32,000 nt of DNA from Promethearchaeota archaeon (GCA_016933055.1 JAFGBS010000001.1:210001-242000), one strand, 5' to 3'. Positions 11,365-20,492 are shown, numbered from the stretch's first letter. Notes: a model not told the origin generated them from the sequence alone. Numbers and translations are program-made.

Positions 11365-13116
11365 GTGAAAGAAATGAAAAAATTCTTGAAAAACCTTAGG
11401 ATTATTACCTTTCTCTGCCTAATTAATGGTGGTTTGATTTATCTTGCAATATATATTCGTTCACCTACTTATGAAATACTTGCTCCTTTTGATTCAGTTT
11501 TCGAAGGAACCGCACCCGGTCAGCAAGTAGTGAATTTTTTTCGACAAGTATTTGATTTTGATTGGGAATTAGGATTAGATTATGATTATGATCCTCTTGA
11601 GGAAATGGAACCACAATCCTATGAGCGATTTGGTTCCTCTTATACACCTTTTAAATCCAAACGTATCCAACAAATCATGAATATTACCCCTATTTTATCA
11701 CCGGATAATTCAGAAGCACTCTTATTAGGATTAATTAAAAATTCAACCTCAAAATTGTATATTGAACAAATGTATATTTATCATGAACCCGAAACTAGTG
11801 GTATCATCCAAGCTATCATCGATGCTCAAGCACGTGGTGTGGAAGTAAAAGTAATTGTGGGAGAAGGAAATGATAAATCACGAGAAACTGCAACAAATTT
11901 AACCAGTTATGGAATAAACGTTCGAATATCTGTCGAAAAAGCTGCAAACGGTAACTATTTCGATGTGATGCACAATAAAGGCGTTATATCAGATGATCGA
12001 GTGTTGATAACTAGTATCAACTGGTCCCCCACTTCTATTTTTGACAACCGCGAAACTGGTGTTATAGTGGAATCATCCTTAGTAGCAGCTTATTATAAGA
12101 TGCTATTTGATTATGATTGGATTGCAAGCGAAGTATATGATCCCCTAGTACATTTCACTGATTCACACCCAATCCCCCAAATTTCTTCATCCCTACTACC
12201 ACTTGATTATAAACCACAATTTACTACTCCTTACACCTTTACTGGGGGCTTTGAGGTAGATGTGATGACCTCACCTGATAACTGTTTCGAGATTATTGAG
12301 AAAATTTTGCTCAATGCTCAACAATCAATTTATATCTCCGTTTATACCCTTAGTTCCCCATATTTATTAGAAGTATTGCGAGATCGTGTGGCGAAGGGTT
12401 TGGATGTCCGCATTTTATTGGAAGAAAATACAACATCTGCTTGGGAGAAGAAATATAACCGTCATGCCCTGTATAATCTTAGTGAAATCGGGGCGGATGG
12501 AAGCTTCGCTCAAGGCAAATGGGCAGGTGCTAAAAATGAATTTCGCTATCAGCATTCTAAATATGCAATTATTGATAATAAGACCCTGATAATATCTAGT
12601 GGTAACTGGGCACGTTCTTCTTGTCCTAAACCACAAGACGACGGAGATGTAGATGGAAATCGAGACTGGTGGATCATTATTTATGGAACTGGAGATCTAG
12701 CGGTAACATTAACCACATCTACGGATACTAAGACGGAAGAGCAAACTCATTTATCTTTGGATGTGGAAAATCCCCAAGATTATACTATAAGGGAAATCTC
12801 CTTAAATATTCAACCCCAATCGTATCTTGAGATTGTACAGAATCTTCGTATGGCGAATGGATCAACAAGTGTGAATCTAGCAGCTTATGATATACAGCAA
12901 TTCATCGGGTCCGTCCGTTTTACTAAATTTGGCATCCATAATGTCGCCATAGATATTCAATATATATTGAATGGTTCACCCGCAGTACAACATACTCAAT
13001 TTGAATTCAGCGTTTTAAAAAATGAAAAAGAAATTTTTCTTTATTATATTCTTCCTACTATTGGAGGAATAATTGTCGTGGGAGTAGTGATAGTAATTTC
13101 AAAACTGAAAATGTAA
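11365..13116 (+). CDS. Phospholipase D-superfamily protein (two HKD motifs) with N- and C-terminal TM segments
   Basis: HNKGVISD (His codon at 11971) with downstream SINWS, and HSKYAIID (His codon at 12553) with downstream SGNW. Hydrophobic stretches at aa ~13-31 and ~557-579. Confidence 0.88.
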   Translation: MKEMKKFLKNLRIITFLCLINGGLIYLAIYIRSPTYEILAPFDSVFEGTAPGQQVVNFFRQVFDFDWELGLDYDYDPLEEMEPQSYERFGSSYTPFKSKRIQQIMNITPILSPDNSEALLLGLIKNSTSKLYIEQMYIYHEPETSGIIQAIIDAQARGVEVKVIVGEGNDKSRETATNLTSYGINVRISVEKAANGNYFDVMHNKGVISDDRVLITSINWSPTSIFDNRETGVIVESSLVAAYYKMLFDYDWIASEVYDPLVHFTDSHPIPQISSSLLPLDYKPQFTTPYTFTGGFEVDVMTSPDNCFEIIEKILLNAQQSIYISVYTLSSPYLLEVLRDRVAKGLDVRILLEENTTSAWEKKYNRHALYNLSEIGADGSFAQGKWAGAKNEFRYQHSKYAIIDNKTLIISSGNWARSSCPKPQDDGDVDGNRDWWIIIYGTGDLAVTLTTSTDTKTEEQTHLSLDVENPQDYTIREISLNIQPQSYLEIVQNLRMANGSTSVNLAAYDIQQFIGSVRFTKFGIHNVAIDIQYILNGSPAVQHTQFEFSVLKNEKEIFLYYILPTIGGIIVVGVVIVISKLKM

Positions 13117-13135
13117 AATAATTTGTGACTTTCTT

Positions 13136-13411
13136 TTATCCGCCACCACGGTTTATCCATTCCGCGATATCCTCATTTTTCGTGCCACATGAGGGACAGG
13201 TATCACGTACTCCCCACACATCCAAGTTAAGATGTACACGAGTTAAGAGTTCTCCACAATTTGTGCACACTACATATTTCGCCCCACAGTTCTCACACAT
13301 CTTAAGTGAAGATTTTTCCACAAAAGGGTATCTCCTTTTTAGAATTGAATCAATCACCGTTCTAAACGCCGTACCACCACATTCATCACAAGTTGACATA
13401 ATACCTACCAT
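13136..13411 (-). CDS. Small tandem zinc-ribbon protein (4x CxxC)
   Basis: Cys at 8/11, 39/42, 49/52 and 72/75. An SD-like AAGGAG lies 8 nt upstream of the ATG. Confidence 0.8.
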   Translation of the reverse strand: MVGIMSTCDECGGTAFRTVIDSILKRRYPFVEKSSLKMCENCGAKYVVCTNCGELLTRVHLNLDVWGVRDTCPSCGTKNEDIAEWINRGGG

Positions 13412-13435
13412 ATCTTAATCTCCTTTATTTCTTTT

Positions 13436-13843
13436 CTAAACACTGGTTAAATCTTGATACAGTCGGGGAATTAACTCTTTATATTCATCATTTTCGATAT
13501 TACTGAGAATATTTGCTGCTATTTTGTTCAGAATTTCACGGTAATTATTAATCCTCTCATCTCGGCGTAACAATAATGCCACAATATAATTTTCTACTTC
13601 AATATGCTTTTCTCCTAATCCCGAGAAGAAAGAAACTACCTTGTTATTCTTCAGTGTTAATGATGAAAATCCGGGTTCGAGAGAGGAAGAAACTCCACGA
13701 TGTGAACCATAGATTTGTGTTAATAAATTATTTGTAATCTTTAGGGATTCCGGATAACTAGCTATTAAGATAGGACCGATTTCATTATCCCATTGCAAAA
13801 CCATAATTCCTAGAGGCATGTCTATATTGTCACCTTTACTCAT
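13436..13843 (-). CDS. Stand-alone uDENN/longin-like protein
   Basis: N-terminal IMVLQWDNEIGPILIASYP matches the (F/W)D-x3-GP-x5-YP pattern of uDENN/longin-type domains. It is followed by beta strands and a C-terminal helix (IVALLL...YREILNKIA). Confidence 0.6.
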   Translation of the reverse strand: MSKGDNIDMPLGIMVLQWDNEIGPILIASYPESLKITNNLLTQIYGSHRGVSSSLEPGFSSLTLKNNKVVSFFSGLGEKHIEVENYIVALLLRRDERINNYREILNKIAANILSNIENDEYKELIPRLYQDLTSV

Positions 13844-13940
13844 TAGTCACTAGTATTATAATAATTTAGAAGGATTTAACCTAACAATCTACTGGTTTTC
13901 TAATATTCTTCAATTCTTCATCTCTTCTCTTCTTCATTTA

Positions 13941-14303
13941 TCAACAGGTAGTATGAAAAACTGCAGCTACATTCTTTCTTTCCGAAAATATTTGGTTGAA
14001 CTTATCGATTAAATTTGGGGTAGTTTCCATGTGGATTTCAATATCGAGACTCTCCAACAAAACCTCTGCTTCGGGTTGAATGGGTAATACACCGGTTTGT
14101 CCTTTTCCAATAAATAAAATTTCTGGTTCGTAGGAAAGCAAGTACTTTATTTCTTCAACCCCTAATGACCGATGACCATGAATTCGGGGACTTTTCTTCT
14201 TGTTTCTTTTTTCTGTTTTACCAGACGGAAGAATATACACATCATGTGAATATAATTGCCCATCTATAGTGATTGATCCAAAACGAGTGTCATCAATTAT
14301 CAT
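13941..14303 (-). CDS. Mth938-like domain protein (DUF498/DUF598 family)
   Basis: FGSITIDG..Y.HDVYI, PEILFIGKGQTG, ETTPNLIDKFN and the C-terminal AAVFHTTC pattern. Confidence 0.85.
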   Translation of the reverse strand: MIIDDTRFGSITIDGQLYSHDVYILPSGKTEKRNKKKSPRIHGHRSLGVEEIKYLLSYEPEILFIGKGQTGVLPIQPEAEVLLESLDIEIHMETTPNLIDKFNQIFSERKNVAAVFHTTC

Positions 14304-14344
14304 CGCACAGAATGTAAAGAAAAAAAAAATATAAAGAATTTGAT

Positions 14345-15400
14345 TTAGCTAACTAAGTGGACTTTTTTCGTTTCCGCATCGATTTCCATGATGCCTTCGT
14401 TGACGTATTCTTCCACATATTTCTTACAAGTAACTAATGGAATTCCTACAGCTTTCGACATGTTAGCTATATCCATGTTTCCGATATCCCTTACTATGAA
14501 AAAAATTTTAAAAATAGGTTCCTTTTCCATGAATTTTCGTAGTTTATCAAAATTTTTGAGAATTGGTTCACTTTTTTTCTTAAATTCTGCTACAGATGAT
14601 TGATTAAACATTAATTGTTCATAATTTTTTACAGATTCATCCAATTCCGTTTGAACTTTATCGAATTTTCGAATTAAATCCTCATACTTTGTTTTTAACT
14701 CATCATACGCATGAGATTTCCTTCTCGCATCGGTTAATTCTTCTTTAGTATTCATGTCTTTTTCCAATAATTGAGTTTCGAGATCTTTAATTTTGTTGAA
14801 TGCCCCATCTCGTTCCGAAAAAATTTGCTGCTTTAAATCTGCCTCAAGTTTTCCTTTTTCTTCGATTAGTAACAAATCCTTCTGACGGACTTCATCTTGC
14901 AATCTGCCACTTAATTTTTTCTCCTCTTCAATGACTTTATTGAGTTCTTGGAGGCGAATTTTTAAACCTTGAATTTCATTTTCCTTCAATTGTATTTCTG
15001 AGCGTTTTGTGGTAAGTTCTGCTCTTAAATCCCCCATTTGGGTAAAGGATTCTTCGAATTTTTTATTAATTATTTCTTGGGTTTTTTCACTCCCGATTAA
15101 ATCTTGCTCAAGCTCCGCAATTCTCCCATATGTCATCTCTAAATTATGGTCTTTCTCCTTTAAATCCGTTCTTTGTTTAGCAATCATTCGTTTTAATTCT
15201 TCTACATCTGCGGGAACATCAAACATATGATCAATTTTTTGCTTTTGTTCCTGAATTACCTTCTGCAGATCTTCAATCATTTTGTTTTGTTTCTGAATAT
15301 GTTCTCTTAAGCGATCCATTTGATTCTTTTGTACTGCCGCTTCTTTTTCAGTTGCGGAAATATTAGCAAGAACTTTTTCCAATTCTTCTTTATCACCCAT
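14345..15400 (-). CDS. Long coiled-coil protein with C-terminal winged-helix-like domain
   Basis: About 290 aa of E/K/Q/L heptad-rich sequence, then IANMSKAVGIPLVTCKKYVEEYVNEGIMEI (HTH plus wing pattern). Confidence 0.7.
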   Translation of the reverse strand: MGDKEELEKVLANISATEKEAAVQKNQMDRLREHIQKQNKMIEDLQKVIQEQKQKIDHMFDVPADVEELKRMIAKQRTDLKEKDHNLEMTYGRIAELEQDLIGSEKTQEIINKKFEESFTQMGDLRAELTTKRSEIQLKENEIQGLKIRLQELNKVIEEEKKLSGRLQDEVRQKDLLLIEEKGKLEADLKQQIFSERDGAFNKIKDLETQLLEKDMNTKEELTDARRKSHAYDELKTKYEDLIRKFDKVQTELDESVKNYEQLMFNQSSVAEFKKKSEPILKNFDKLRKFMEKEPIFKIFFIVRDIGNMDIANMSKAVGIPLVTCKKYVEEYVNEGIMEIDAETKKVHLVS

Positions 15401-15513
15401 TATAAATGCACTCCATTACAAAAGTAATATTGATTGTGAAGTTGATTAGGTAGGATCTGCATTTTATTTCCTAAATAATCTATGCTAAATATGCACTCCA
15501 CTCCACGAAGGGA

Positions 15514-15533
15514 AAAAAAAGAATTCTTTTTTT
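15514..15533. terminator. Perfect 20-bp palindrome A7-GAATTC-T7; probable U-tract terminator of the GTPase gene
   Basis: On the minus strand it gives a U8 tract starting ~30 nt past the stop at 15550. Archaeal terminators are oligo-U tracts. Confidence 0.45.
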
Positions 15534-15549
15534 ATCTGTTCTTCCAAAC

Positions 15550-17397
15550 CTATTCTTTTTCTGACCGGTTTTTTAATTCTTCTTTTAATTGTTCTTGCAG
15601 CTGTTCTAAATTTTCGATTTGACTCTTTATGGAGGGTTCTAATTCCTCCAATTTTTTCTGTTTTTGCTCGAATTCTTCGTTAGAAATTGTTCCCAAGATG
15701 TTTTCCATGTCTAAATCAATTATATGTTTGGAGATATCGGTTAATCTCAATTTTAAATCCATGATTTGCATTCCAATTTCATTGATCCTCTGGCGTAACG
15801 ATTGATCAGAGCTAATCTCCGAGGTTTTCTCAACAGTTGTTGGTGTGTTGGGGAGAGGAGGTGAACTTTTCAATTTTTGTATGGAGGGTCTTAAGTTTGG
15901 TGGTGGTATGGGTTTAGGAGGAGCTTGAGGATCGTTTGACACTGAGGGAGGAACGGATATCGATGCGTCCGTATGAGTATTTTCTTTGGAATTAGAAGAT
16001 AGGGTGAGATCGGGACTATGATCAGTAGGGGGAATTGGTGGTTTTGCAACTGGTTTCTTAATTTTCGGTTTTGGTAACACAGAGGAAGAATTCAAGCCCT
16101 TTAGCATCATGTCCAGTTGGTCTAAGTTTGAAGATGGTTTTGGTTTCGTTCCTTGAGGAATTGATGCAGTTTTTGGTGGAATTTGAGGCGGAATTTTATT
16201 AATTGTGGATTTGATTGAACTTGGTAAAGTATCACGTGCGGGAATTTCTTCTTTTATTTGTTCTTCTCCCGGTTCAGACGAGACTTCGATGACTGGAGGA
16301 AATATATCAGAGTTGGTCTCTATTTGTGTGGATGACACCGTTATCGTTTCTTTCTCGACATTTTTCAAGATATTTTGGATTTTTAGAGCTTTCTCTTGAA
16401 ATTCTTGAGAAACCACATCATCACCCAAGGTTAAACATAAATCTGCCACATCCATAAAAATTGTAACAGCTTGTTCGAAATCACCGTTTTCTAGTGCATA
16501 TTCCGCAGCAGCTAATTTTTTATCCCTATCGATGAGAGGCTTTAATAAAGGAGATACTTCTGCGGACATTTCTAGAATATCAGCAATTATGGTGATCATT
16601 TTATCTCGGTTTGTGGGATCCGTAGCAACCATTGAATATGCTTTCACATTCAACATACGTTCTAAATCTGAAATTGGGAGTGCATTGGGGAGATCTTGTT
16701 TATTCCCAATTACTGCTTGGTGAGCAAATGGTGCTTCCTTTCTGATCAATTCTGTGAAAAACTTGCTCTTTTCAACATTTTCAAGTGTAGAATCGGTAAT
16801 AATAAGCACAGCATCGGATCCATGAACGAAATTATTCCAAAGAAACGAAAATTGTTCTTGACCTGCAAAATCCCATAGGTGAAAATGAAGATTTCCGATT
16901 TTTATTGTCGCAATATCTCCTGTAATGGTAGGAATGTGCTTTGTTGGTATTTCTTCTGCTCGAATCAAGCGAGTTATTGTCGTTTTTCCTACTCCGCTGA
17001 ATCCAACTAAAGAAATTTTCGGTCGCAAACTTTTATGGATAGTTTCAACTGTTGGATCAAATATTGCAAATGTTTTCGGATCAATATTATGTCCAAGAAC
17101 GCCTGCAAACATAGACAAGAATTCCTTTTTGCAGCGAGCAATTTCTTTTTCTATATTCTCGAATTTATCTGATAAATCAGAAATGAATAAAAACAACAGA
17201 TATTGATCCGATATCGGTAAATAAGTTATCCGGTATTTGTAGAAATCGTGGTATTTTATTTCTTCTAGGGGATATCTAAATGCATCTTTCATTATATTGC
17301 GTAATATCCCATCAAATGACTCCTCGTCCAAACTTTTTCCGTAGTTCTGGTCATAAATTAATTCCCCTTGTATGTAAATTTTAACGGCACGTAACAC
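15550..17397 (-). CDS. Multidomain small GTPase: longin-like N-domain, Arf-like G domain, helical hairpin, proline-rich linker, C-terminal coiled coil/SHOCT-like region
   Basis: G1 GFSGVGKT, G2 PT, G3 WDFAGQ, G4 NKQD (NKQDLPNA as in Arf) and G5 VAT. The N-terminal ~124 aa follow a longin-like beta/helix pattern. Confidence 0.85.
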   Translation of the reverse strand: MLRAVKIYIQGELIYDQNYGKSLDEESFDGILRNIMKDAFRYPLEEIKYHDFYKYRITYLPISDQYLLFLFISDLSDKFENIEKEIARCKKEFLSMFAGVLGHNIDPKTFAIFDPTVETIHKSLRPKISLVGFSGVGKTTITRLIRAEEIPTKHIPTITGDIATIKIGNLHFHLWDFAGQEQFSFLWNNFVHGSDAVLIITDSTLENVEKSKFFTELIRKEAPFAHQAVIGNKQDLPNALPISDLERMLNVKAYSMVATDPTNRDKMITIIADILEMSAEVSPLLKPLIDRDKKLAAAEYALENGDFEQAVTIFMDVADLCLTLGDDVVSQEFQEKALKIQNILKNVEKETITVSSTQIETNSDIFPPVIEVSSEPGEEQIKEEIPARDTLPSSIKSTINKIPPQIPPKTASIPQGTKPKPSSNLDQLDMMLKGLNSSSVLPKPKIKKPVAKPPIPPTDHSPDLTLSSNSKENTHTDASISVPPSVSNDPQAPPKPIPPPNLRPSIQKLKSSPPLPNTPTTVEKTSEISSDQSLRQRINEIGMQIMDLKLRLTDISKHIIDLDMENILGTISNEEFEQKQKKLEELEPSIKSQIENLEQLQEQLKEELKNRSEKE

Positions 17398-17554
17398 AAT
17401 TATTCACTGTATGATTAGTTGGTTTTGAATTTTGGACTTTCTTTTTCCATTATTGAAGATACTCAGCACAAATGCTAATATTATGAAAAAGATAGTTATT
17501 TTGTTCGTAAATACGTTTGTAGGAATAATTCTGGGATTGATGGATTTGCTCTTT

Positions 17555-18049
17555 TCATAATTCATTTATGTGTTTAACGATGTCCGTGAAAATAACGTAT
17601 TTCTTTTCGTTTCGGGTGGTCTCATCTTCAATCTCTTTTTCGATTTTAATTAACTCATCAGAAATATCGAATTCTTTGAAATCTTCAATCTCGATTGAAG
17701 ATGAACTTTTATCCAATATTGTGATAAAGCGATTAATACTGGGAAGAAATTCAGAAAGGTCCACATGATCGGGGATTTTGGTCATAATAAACAGCTGTTT
17801 TCCATAGGTAAATACGAAATTGGTCCCTGAGATGGTTAATACCAAGGAATTTATTTCTTCAGAATTTAGCTCTAAAGCAACTCGAGAACGAGCATTTATA
17901 AAATCAAGCAAAGTGGTGGAAAGAACTCCACCTTTTTTAAAATCAATGAGAGAGGAACTCAAGATGAATCCATATTTATCTATGATTGCCACATCTGTGT
18001 TTAAACTCTCCTTAAGTTGTTTGCCAATTTCTTCGATGTTAACACTCAT
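17555..18049 (-). CDS. Roadblock/LAMTOR2/MglB-like protein with acidic C-terminal extension
   Basis: VAIIDKYGFILSSS, a long helix ending RVALELNSEEINSLVL, and a beta hairpin follow the Roadblock pattern. ATG 18049 is preferred over GTG 18079. Confidence 0.7.
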   Translation of the reverse strand: MSVNIEEIGKQLKESLNTDVAIIDKYGFILSSSLIDFKKGGVLSTTLLDFINARSRVALELNSEEINSLVLTISGTNFVFTYGKQLFIMTKIPDHVDLSEFLPSINRFITILDKSSSSIEIEDFKEFDISDELIKIEKEIEDETTRNEKKYVIFTDIVKHINEL

Positions 18050-18091
18050 TTTTCCTATAAGAAAATAGGAAAAAATCACCTTATAATTTTG

Positions 18092-18802
18092 TTACTCAGA
18101 AATAATTAATTCGGGAATCTTTCCTACTTTTGCTACCAATTCTCCGCAAGTAATGAACACTCCCTTAATAAAGTCCATTGATTTTGCTAATTCGAGGGTG
18201 GGCTCTAAGATACACCTGGTCTCATTTCTTTTTACGCTGTTTGCAATCTTAGTAGCAGCTGCATCTGCAATACCGGCCGAAGATGCACACACAGTGACGG
18301 TATCTGCCTCTCCTAAACTCGTTGCATGACCAAATGTTCCCGAACTCGTAGCAATCCCTAATGGATCACTCCCCCCTCGAAACAAAAAACTCACTGTATT
18401 TTTTAAATTGGTTGTTTTCGAGTAGAGATTGATAAAAATATCTTCGATTGAATGTATCTTAATCTCTCCTCCATTTTCAACGACTGCTATTTGTGCACCG
18501 TGACGAATCATTTCGTCACACATCGCATCAGCAAATACACCTGCCACAGAAGCCATAGGTCCAACATTTGCGAGAATTGCAGCATTCTGCATCTGGACAA
18601 CCACATCAAAAGTAGTTTCAATAGTAATGGGAGAGAAAGAGGTTTTAAATTCGGGATGCTTACGAATCACCTCTTCAAGTTGGGATCTAATACGAATCAA
18701 GTAATTCCTAGCAATTTTTACGTATTTTTCAGAATCTGTAATTATGGTGATATCTGATTCTTTTATTCGAAAGTGTTTTTTAATTCGGGGGAAAGATCGC
18801 AT
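18092..18802 (-). CDS. UPF0280 family ApbE-like protein
   Basis: VGPMASVAG, VVENGGEI, GIATSSGTFGHATSLGEADTVTV and ADAAAT. Confidence 0.9.
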   Translation of the reverse strand: MRSFPRIKKHFRIKESDITIITDSEKYVKIARNYLIRIRSQLEEVIRKHPEFKTSFSPITIETTFDVVVQMQNAAILANVGPMASVAGVFADAMCDEMIRHGAQIAVVENGGEIKIHSIEDIFINLYSKTTNLKNTVSFLFRGGSDPLGIATSSGTFGHATSLGEADTVTVCASSAGIADAAATKIANSVKRNETRCILEPTLELAKSMDFIKGVFITCGELVAKVGKIPELIISE

Positions 18803-18851
18803 TATAATATCCTATATATTATTATGGAAGTAGAAGAAACCAAGTTATCAT

Positions 18852-20492
18852 ATGAAATTTAACGATGAAAATCTTTTCTCTTTTAATTCCCATCGTTCTT
18901 GTTTATATACAAAGCATGGTGTCGTGGGAGCGAGTCAGCCACTAGCAGCTGAAGTGGGTTTATCAATTTTAAAATCTGGTGGAAATGCCGCTGACGCAGC
19001 TGTGGCGAGTGCCGCAGTATTAAATGTTGTAGAACCAATGAGTACAGGTGCTGGTGGGGATTGTTTTTGTTTATTTTATGACAATTCTCATAAAAAGGTG
19101 GTAGGTCTCAATGGGTCAGGACGTGCTCCAAAATATCTAAGCTTTACCTATCTTCAAGAAGTGGGAATCGATAGTATTACCATACCAAGTACTAGTCCCC
19201 ATGCAATCACTGTTCCTGGGGCAGTTGCTGGGTGGATTGATACTCTATCACAGTTTGGCACAATGGATATTAGTGAAGTTCTTAAACCAGCGATAAAAAT
19301 TGCTGAAGAAGGCTTTCCTGTCAGCCCTTTCATTTCCATCATTTGGAAGTTACAGGAATTCAAATTAAAGAGGGCAAAATACGGCTTTGAATTGCTGATA
19401 AATCGCAAGTCCCCGAAAATAGGCCAGATATTTAAAAATCCACATTTGGCAACTGTATTTCGTGAGATTGCTGAGCATGGGAAAGCGGGATTTTATTCTG
19501 GCTGGGTAGCAGAAGAAATTATAAACATAATCAACGAAGCGGGAGGAGTAATGACCCAAGAGGATCTGAAAAATCACTCATCGAAATTCGTGGATCCCAT
19601 TTCTACTACCTACCGTGGATTAGAAGTACATCAAATTCCTCCGAATGGTCAGGGATTAACCTTGCTAATTGCATTGAACCTTCTAGAACAGTTTAATCTT
19701 GTTTCCATGGGACCTGATAGCATTTCATATCTTCACTTACTGATTGAGTGTTTACGACTTGCATTTGCTGATTCACGGTATTTTGTTTCAGATCCAGATC
19801 ATCAAAATATTCCCATTCAACAATTACTTTCAAAAACCTATGCACTTGAGCGAAAAAGTTTGATAGATCAAAATAAAGCTTCATTGTTTTTTTCTCATGG
19901 ATTAGAGGAAATGCACTCTGATACTGTGTACATTGCAACGGCAGATTCCATGGGAAATGCTTGTAGTTTCATTAATTCGAATTATGAATCATTTGGAACG
20001 GGTATTATTCCTAGAGGTACTGGATTTGTGCTGCAAAACCGCGGAAGTTGCTTTACTCTTATCCAAGACCATCCAAATGTCGTAGCTCCGGAAAAACGTC
20101 CTTATCATACAATTATTCCGGGCATGGTCACTAAAAACAAAGAACTATTTGCGTGCTATGGAATTATGGGCGGATTTAATCAACCACAAGCTCACTTACA
20201 AGTACTTTCTAAACTGATTGATTTTCATTTTGATCCTCAATCGGCGTTGGATGCGTTGCGCTTCAGTATTCTAGGAGGAAATCCGTCTGGAATTGTTGCT
20301 GTGGAAAAAGGTGAGGCAATTAGCTCTCTAACTATTGAAAAATTACAAAAAATGGGGCATGAAATCAAGGTTGTCGATGGAATTGGACGAACAATATTTG
20401 GAAATGGGCAGGTAATAATGCGTGATGATCAAAATGATATTTATATTTCAGGAAGTGATCCCAGATCCGATGGCTGTGTGATTGGATATTAG
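18852..20492 (+). CDS. ggt: Gamma-glutamyltransferase (Ntn hydrolase)
   Basis: GGNAADAA, TVPGAVAGW, PPNGQG, nucleophile Thr in SDTVY, LQNRG, KRPYHTIIP, GGFNQPQ and SDPRSDG. Confidence 0.95.
   Translation: MKFNDENLFSFNSHRSCLYTKHGVVGASQPLAAEVGLSILKSGGNAADAAVASAAVLNVVEPMSTGAGGDCFCLFYDNSHKKVVGLNGSGRAPKYLSFTYLQEVGIDSITIPSTSPHAITVPGAVAGWIDTLSQFGTMDISEVLKPAIKIAEEGFPVSPFISIIWKLQEFKLKRAKYGFELLINRKSPKIGQIFKNPHLATVFREIAEHGKAGFYSGWVAEEIINIINEAGGVMTQEDLKNHSSKFVDPISTTYRGLEVHQIPPNGQGLTLLIALNLLEQFNLVSMGPDSISYLHLLIECLRLAFADSRYFVSDPDHQNIPIQQLLSKTYALERKSLIDQNKASLFFSHGLEEMHSDTVYIATADSMGNACSFINSNYESFGTGIIPRGTGFVLQNRGSCFTLIQDHPNVVAPEKRPYHTIIPGMVTKNKELFACYGIMGGFNQPQAHLQVLSKLIDFHFDPQSALDALRFSILGGNPSGIVAVEKGEAISSLTIEKLQKMGHEIKVVDGIGRTIFGNGQVIMRDDQNDIYISGSDPRSDGCVIGY

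Follow-up and report, generated by a model that had tools for sequence, protein, structure and literature searches.

Platforms built from Roadblock or longin domains cradle small GTPases in MglB–MglA, Ragulator–Rag and SRX–SRβ. In the Asgard archaeon MK-D1, Arf/Rag-like GTPases fused to a longin or a Roadblock domain have been described from AlphaFold2 (AF2) models, and, as a rule, GTPase genes of this organism do not share an operon with Roadblock or longin genes (Tran et al. 2024, PMC10933270). Asgard longins carrying a Gly-Pro (GP) motif have also been described and were not linked to a client GTPase; this motif, at the end of the β1–β2 loop or the start of β2, has been reported only in the longins of GTPase-activating proteins (GAPs) (PMC12290439). 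C9orf72–SMCR8 (CSW) is an ARF GAP, and GAP activity towards ARF1 is lost in the C9orf72 mutant W33G/D34K (PMC8213707). Here, we describe a locus from a Promethearchaeota archaeon (GCA_016933055.1, JAFGBS010000001.1:210001-242000) in which a longin-fused Arf-like GTPase, a Roadblock-like protein and a stand-alone longin with a GP motif are encoded close together. The window, by which we mean the whole 32,000 nt stretch that was analysed (contig C16:210001-242000), comes from a 3.76 Mb genome that is 91% complete, and the relatives of this genome include Promethearchaeum syntrophicum MK-D1, Lokiarchaeum ossiferum B35, Harpocratesius repetitus and the metagenome-assembled genome (MAG) AMARA_1, which belongs to the same genus.

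Six successive open reading frames (ORFs) are found on the minus strand between positions 13136 and 18049, separated by spacers of 24, 97, 41, 149 and 157 nt. An earlier note on this DNA had reported six consecutive minus-strand genes with gaps of 24–157 nt, which the ORF coordinates bear out, and had proposed that a switch, its regulators and a candidate effector are encoded together as one module. Two sets of loci were used for comparison, 20 orthologous loci, each from a different genome of the order, onto each of which all of the window proteins were mapped, and 80 loci containing the stand-alone longin gene from a species-level genome collection. The families concerned are referred to here as f1 (the Promethearchaeum/Lokiarchaeum family), f4 (the sister family), f2 and f3. 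The comparison revealed two deeply conserved gene pairs lying side by side and does not support one six-gene module. Pair A consists of a gene for a diverged Roadblock-like protein (Rbl) followed by the longin–Arf-like GTPase gene, and pair B of genes for a coiled-coil/winged-helix protein (CCwH) and for the stand-alone longin, here named p135. A literature search found no description of this gene arrangement. We lean towards the view that two conserved Lokiarchaeal gene pairs have been joined at this locus and probably act on one GTPase switch. All of the features described below are on the minus strand.

The GTPase gene (15550–17397, with a GTG start) encodes a 615 aa protein that matches the Pfam Arf family (PF00025) over residues 126–253 with 69.6 bits (cut-off 22.3; E 3.1e-19). 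The nearest solved folds to the G domain (residues ~126–275, 16573–17022) in Foldseek are all Arf or Arl proteins, headed by Arf1 and Arl1 at 26–28% identity. Ahead of it, residues 2–123 (17029–17394) were modelled by AF2 as a β-β-α-β-β-β-α-α longin with a pLDDT of 81–92, and the longin–Arf-like fusion claimed in the earlier note is therefore upheld. Because this 123-residue longin domain replaces the N-terminal amphipathic, often myristoylated, membrane helix of canonical Arf proteins, the GTPase is Arf-like and not a canonical Arf. The G1 (GFSGVGKTT), switch I (PTITGD), G3 (WDFAGQE, with the catalytic Gln) and G4 (NKQD) motifs are invariant in an alignment of 18 orthologues, which has a mean column identity of 75%, and with the G1–G4 motifs and catalytic Gln intact the protein should, judging by its sequence, be a working nucleotide switch. 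The G domain is followed by a short helical segment, a Pro-rich disordered linker (~15838–16365) and a conserved C-terminal coiled-coil helix (15553–15837). This order is retained even in the most distant orthologues, and the tail layout is shared by the f4 orthologues; the MK-D1 orthologue is 53% identical. A fusion of CCwH to the f4 GTPase was considered and rejected, as the only match to the f4 tails is the tail of the GTPase itself.

The GTPase belongs to the same class as the fused Asgard GTPases described previously, with an N-terminal longin on an Arf/Rag-like G domain, but is an exception to the generalisation made for MK-D1 (PMC10933270) in that a Roadblock-like gene, missed by Pfam, is conserved upstream of it. 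It resembles SRX–SRβ (PDB 1nrj) in pairing a longin with an Arf-family G domain, but here the two are in one polypeptide and there is no SRP-receptor context. Unlike MglA and Rag, it combines an Arf-like G domain with a longin in cis and not with a C-terminal Roadblock domain.

A separate observation concerns the start of this gene. In 12 f3 orthologues (L017–L032; e.g. L019:7545, L020:8895 and L024:9704), an ATT or ATA codon is aligned with the ATG or GTG start found in f1, and a GGTGA-like site precedes most of them. An in-frame TGA lies three codons upstream in 9 of the 12, and no canonical start can therefore encode the conserved first β-strand; in L017 and L018, the third codon upstream is a GTG. 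The pattern points to non-canonical initiation, or to control of translation, in the f3 genes.

Rbl (17555–18049; 164 aa) is encoded by the first gene of pair A and has an acidic C-terminal helical extension. The window protein has no match in Pfam or NCBIfam, only one of its 18 orthologues reaches the Pfam Roadblock family (E 0.085), and a six-frame search of the genome with PF03259 returned 17 other genes above the cut-off, Rbl not among them. When a profile built from the 18 orthologues was compared with the PDB, the two best matches were both Roadblock/LC7 proteins, 7yh1_D (E 1.4e-3) and 9jue_D. An hhalign comparison with 12 Roadblock proteins from the same genome gave a probability of 62% (E 7e-5) over 82 columns, and the control comparison with two longin alignments gave less than 2%. 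We treat Rbl as a diverged Roadblock protein, so the Roadblock gene of the earlier note stands as a candidate remote homologue, supported by PDB profiles and hhalign but not by a family-level match in Pfam. Of the 251 genomes sampled from the phylum, 55 were found to have the gene, which is single-copy, and all 55 belong to this order; a search of four f4 genomes (63–88% complete) did not detect it. A Roadblock gene immediately upstream of a GTPase gene is the arrangement seen in mglBA, and in MglA–MglB and Rag–Ragulator, likewise, proteins with the Roadblock fold are encoded with a small GTPase or assemble with it, and serve as its platform, GAP or guanine nucleotide exchange factor (GEF). 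Rbl differs from MglB and Ragulator in its high divergence and its C-terminal extension.

The p135 ORF spans 13436–13843, with a probable start at ATG 13819 (13436..13819) that is preceded by GGTGA 11 nt upstream. Searches of the 127 aa protein against Pfam and NCBIfam returned no match, and profile searches of PDB sequences with alignments of 7 and 52 rows returned none that was significant. The AF2 model has a pLDDT of 90.5, and its DSSP order of E E H E E E H H is the longin topology. The top nine Foldseek matches to the model are NPRL2 or NPRL3 chains of GATOR1/SEAC, and 1nrj_A is also among the matches. VIA Z values were 12.8 to the Loki longin 8yqg and 12.6 to NPRL2 residues 6–143, approximately one unit above those for SNARE longins and DENND1, within a range of 10–12.8 across many longins. 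Members of one Atlas neighbour cluster of p135 are annotated with Pfam NPR2 in 19% of cases. DENND1A/B match p135 through their N-terminal longin (uDENN) alone (Z 11.2), and p135, being longin throughout, has no uDENN–cDENN–dDENN module. The earlier note had called it uDENN-like; the longin fold was correct, but the DENN module is missing and the GAP-type longins of C9orf72 and NPRL2 are closer. No homology to the cis longin of the GTPase was detectable by hhalign (probability 0.2%).

Conserved positions in p135 also point to the GAP-type longins. Among 83 orthologues W10, D11, G15, H40, R41, R85, D87 and E88 are invariant, and P16 is present in at least 95%. G15-P16 is at the start of the modelled β2 (residues 15–22), where the GP motif of GAP longins is found, and W10-D11 lies five residues before it, the same spacing as W33-D34 and G38-P39 in C9orf72. 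R41 is at the end of α1 and R85 at the end of β5. By modelled fold and motif, p135 appears to belong to the C9orf72/NPRL2-like, GAP-type longin class. It shares the longin fold and the GP at the start of β2 with CSW, FLCN–FNIP2 and the NPRL2–NPRL3 pair of GATOR1, and the likeness to CSW extends to the neighbouring GTPase, which is Arf-like, as CSW acts on ARF. However, p135 is a stand-alone protein without the DENN, TINI or C-terminal domains of these complexes. In this genus, a GV insertion (residues 42–43; window positions 13691–13696) directly follows the invariant His-Arg, and is lacking in at least 95% of the 83 aligned orthologues.

Pair A is conserved throughout the order, with Rbl and the GTPase on the same strand, 12–157 nt apart, and adjacent in 26 of the 27 genomes in which this can be resolved. 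In pair B, CCwH (14345–15400) and p135 are immediate neighbours in 76 of the 80 species loci, as convergent genes in 66 and as co-oriented genes in 10, and are separated by a median of approximately 90 nt; the next commonest neighbour family of p135 is found at 44 of the 80 loci at most. Wherever the contigs of f1 genomes permit the test, pairs A and B lie next to each other. These genomes represent five genera and two arrangements: in MK-D1, L. ossiferum, Harpocratesius and several MAGs, pair B is upstream of pair A and divergent from it, and in the window and AMARA_1 it is collinear and lies downstream of pair A, at the opposite flank. In f4, the GTPase gene is immediately followed by p135. 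Among the 80 species loci, the gene for this GTPase lies within 8 kb of p135 in five, all in f1. The downstream gene in f3 encodes an aspartokinase and the upstream gene in f4 a JAB/MPN protein (Pfam), neither of which is related to the module.

One f3 genome, G037, has a different organisation. At L032:9053-15970, the GTPase orthologue has no Rbl gene upstream and follows a 2305 aa ORF that contains a p135-like domain; the Rbl gene of G037 is elsewhere, near a diverged copy of the GTPase gene.

Paralogues of the two families are paired as well. Six f3 genomes from four genera encode a 360–375 aa protein with an N-terminal p135-like domain (a WD-longin protein) convergently with a 345 aa paralogue of the GTPase, and a gene for a 1200–1450 aa protein precedes the WD-longin gene. 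Pfam gave nothing usable for the 370 aa WD-longin proteins or their giant upstream partners. In the genome from which the window comes, a small-GTPase gene lies no more than 5 kb from four of the eight WD-longin genes (P 0.003 by permutation). The genomes with paralogue pairs are related, and these counts do not represent independent events.

If both pairs serve one switch, the longin in cis, probably with Rbl, would form a Roadblock/longin platform cradling the G domain, and partners would be recruited by the Pro-rich linker and the C-terminal coiled coil of the GTPase. CCwH would be a scaffold for p135, whose WDxxxGP face could bind the switch regions and influence GTP hydrolysis. We propose the platform and the docking of p135 because there are precedents in MglB–MglA, Ragulator–Rag, SRX–SRβ and C9orf72–SMCR8–ARF1; regulation of the GTPase by p135 or Rbl, all of the physical contacts and their direction (GAP, GEF or effector) are what we infer from these analogies. 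A prediction of the complex between GTPase residues 1–300, p135, GTP and Mg gave an ipSAE of 0.00 in two runs, which counts neither for nor against binding. The system would thus be a small GTPase with Roadblock/longin regulators, in which the pairing of p135 with this GTPase as its client is suggested by gene context.

A more far-reaching reading, which we consider improbable, is that pairs A and B are a prokaryotic forerunner of the lysosomal longin-GAP/Roadblock circuitry (Rag–Ragulator–GATOR1/FLCN and ARF–C9orf72/SMCR8), p135 on CCwH corresponding to a minimal longin GAP and Rbl to a Ragulator-like platform. If true, this would tell which Asgard GTPase is the target of the GP-motif longins, as was asked in a 2025 survey of longin GAPs.

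In contrast to the Asgard longins described in PMC12290439, p135 has a gene context that proposes a client, and the locus also addresses a gap noted by Tran et al. (2024), namely that Asgard GTPases can usually not be matched to regulators by gene order. Its value lies mainly in a concrete set of four candidate proteins that can be tested directly; biochemistry is feasible because both cultured Lokiarchaeia, MK-D1 and L. ossiferum, have orthologues. A positive result would place a longin-GAP mechanism for Arf/Rag-type GTPases before eukaryogenesis, and a negative one would mean that conserved gene order misleads in this case.

Several observations weigh against a single switch served by both pairs. 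The β4–β5 loop of p135 (residues 66–77), presumably the position of the arginine finger in FLCN, NPRL2 and SMCR8, contains no Arg, and R41 is conserved only among the orthologues and not across the wider WD-longin family. Neither p135 nor Rbl has a significant sequence match to eukaryotic regulators, and the assignment of Rbl to the Roadblock family is one of remote homology. Across most of the order, including 75 of the 80 species loci and all of the f3 and f2 genomes examined, there is no linkage between pair B and pair A. In f3, p135 and CCwH are convergent and are therefore not co-transcribed. Finally, the genomes of any one family are related to one another, so that fewer independent events lie behind the synteny counts than the counts suggest.

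The last of these points, together with the unlinked loci, favours the main alternative, in which the pairs have unrelated functions, pair A being a self-contained Roadblock/GTPase switch and pair B acting elsewhere. Their adjacency would then simply have been inherited, and since the f1 genomes are related, one ancestral event could explain it. The sequence between the pairs in the window is also in keeping with separate units. A T8 tract (15513–15520), 30 nt past the GTPase stop, corresponds to the U-tract that the earlier note placed at ~15515 and is a candidate archaeal terminator between pairs A and B. A T10 tract follows the coiled-coil gene, and AT-rich, promoter-like spacers follow both this gene and the GTPase gene. 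These features are consistent with the note's suggestion of more than one transcript, although this is purely a reading of the sequence. Three metatranscriptomes from the same study share almost no sequence words with the window. On the other side, adjacency has been kept in two different f1 arrangements, p135 directly follows the GTPase gene in f4, and different paralogues of both families are paired too. We regard unrelated pairs as a serious alternative but an unlikely one, and continue to prefer a common switch.

CCwH offers grounds for another alternative. Its gene encodes approximately 280 aa of coiled coil followed by a putative C-terminal winged helix-turn-helix (wHTH) at residues ~293–351 (14348–14524), and the orthologues have conserved N- and C-terminal blocks with a middle of variable length. 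The winged helix has no match in Pfam. The Atlas model of CCwH matches IclR/HTH_24 wHTH domains at TM 0.66–0.83 over only ~60 residues, a resemblance to the DNA-binding domains of IclR/MarR-type regulators that could mean that pair B encodes a system associated with DNA or the chromosome, consisting of a winged-helix DNA binder carried on a long coiled coil and of p135 as its regulatory subunit, and not a GTPase regulator. Weak coiled-coil matches to SMC and Rad50 point the same way, as does the automatic naming of the CCwH Atlas cluster as Smc family. However, these matches, like one to ATG16, are far under the cut-offs and reflect coiled-coil composition, and CCwH has no ATPase head. Winged helices also serve as protein-binding modules in longin GAP subunits, in the C-terminal domains of NPRL2 and NPRL3, and the WDxxxGP signature of p135 and the GTPase neighbourhoods point to GTPases. 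We therefore think a DNA-associated role distinctly improbable, and favour CCwH as a candidate scaffold for p135.

That all six genes, including those for the DUF498/Mth938-like protein and the zinc-ribbon protein, form one dedicated switch module is highly implausible: the genes are co-oriented with short gaps, the zinc-ribbon gene begins 24 nt after p135 here and in the same-genus genome G001 its homologue and p135 share 8 nt, and a DUF498 gene is 1.3 kb from p135 at the distant locus L110, but membership of the cluster is confined to one genus, DUF498 occurs at 2 of the 80 p135 loci and the zinc ribbon at 1 of 80 and not at the other 79, and to our knowledge neither family has a link to GTPases.

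The DUF498/Mth938-like gene (13941–14303; 120 aa) is a lineage-specific insert between CCwH and p135, found in the cluster only in the same-genus entries G001, L013 and L055. Its product matches PF04430 over the full profile (1–109) with 62.5 bits (cut-off 33; E 4e-17), confirming the Mth938-like protein of the earlier note. The zinc-ribbon gene (13136–13411; 91 aa) is preceded by an AGGAG site and probably shares a transcript with p135, in this genus alone. Its product, a putative double zinc ribbon, has four CxxC pairs, as expected of the zinc ribbon that had been claimed, but scores below the cut-off for DZR (24 bits vs 27.3) and for the other ribbon families. Both genes are genus-specific passengers. 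The note's proposal of a common module is consequently retained, as a candidate, for Rbl–GTPase and CCwH–p135, where synteny and the pairing of WD-longin and GTPase paralogues support it, but not for the DUF498 and zinc-ribbon genes. Likewise, the comparison of gene order across genomes that it had called for found both pairs conserved, and neighbours throughout one family, but these two genes only within the genus and the pairs unlinked in f3 and f2.

Upstream of Rbl by 42 nt is a conserved hypothetical gene of the PRK04334 family (18092–18802; NCBIfam NF003321, E 7.5e-64, below the equivalog cut-off), a neighbour for which we claim no membership of the module. It is next to Rbl and on the same strand here and in G001, and next to Rbl but divergent in all of the f3 loci examined; at MK-D1-type loci it is not adjacent to Rbl, so that both junctions differ between the two f1 arrangements. 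An Rfam scan of 12900–18900 matched no RNA family.

Further WD-longin genes were noted elsewhere. A recurrent two-gene cassette (L045–L051; G000:C2:270622-275807 and C11:120830-126779) encodes a 1200–1600 aa protein with a hydrophobic N-terminus and then a 360–375 aa WD-longin protein; f3 copies of this cassette converge on a short longin-GTPase paralogue. Some database relatives are single proteins of 1300–2500 aa with the WD-longin near the C-terminus. At G000:C2:262150-267143, the gene for a 571 aa longin-GTPase paralogue is followed by two ORFs on the same strand and then by one for a 345 aa protein that opens with a WDxxxGP-type longin. Finally, at G000:C10:21030-23162, a 443 aa WD-longin protein is encoded 178 nt downstream of a 207 aa Rab-like GTPase on the same strand, and these may represent another longin/GTPase pair.

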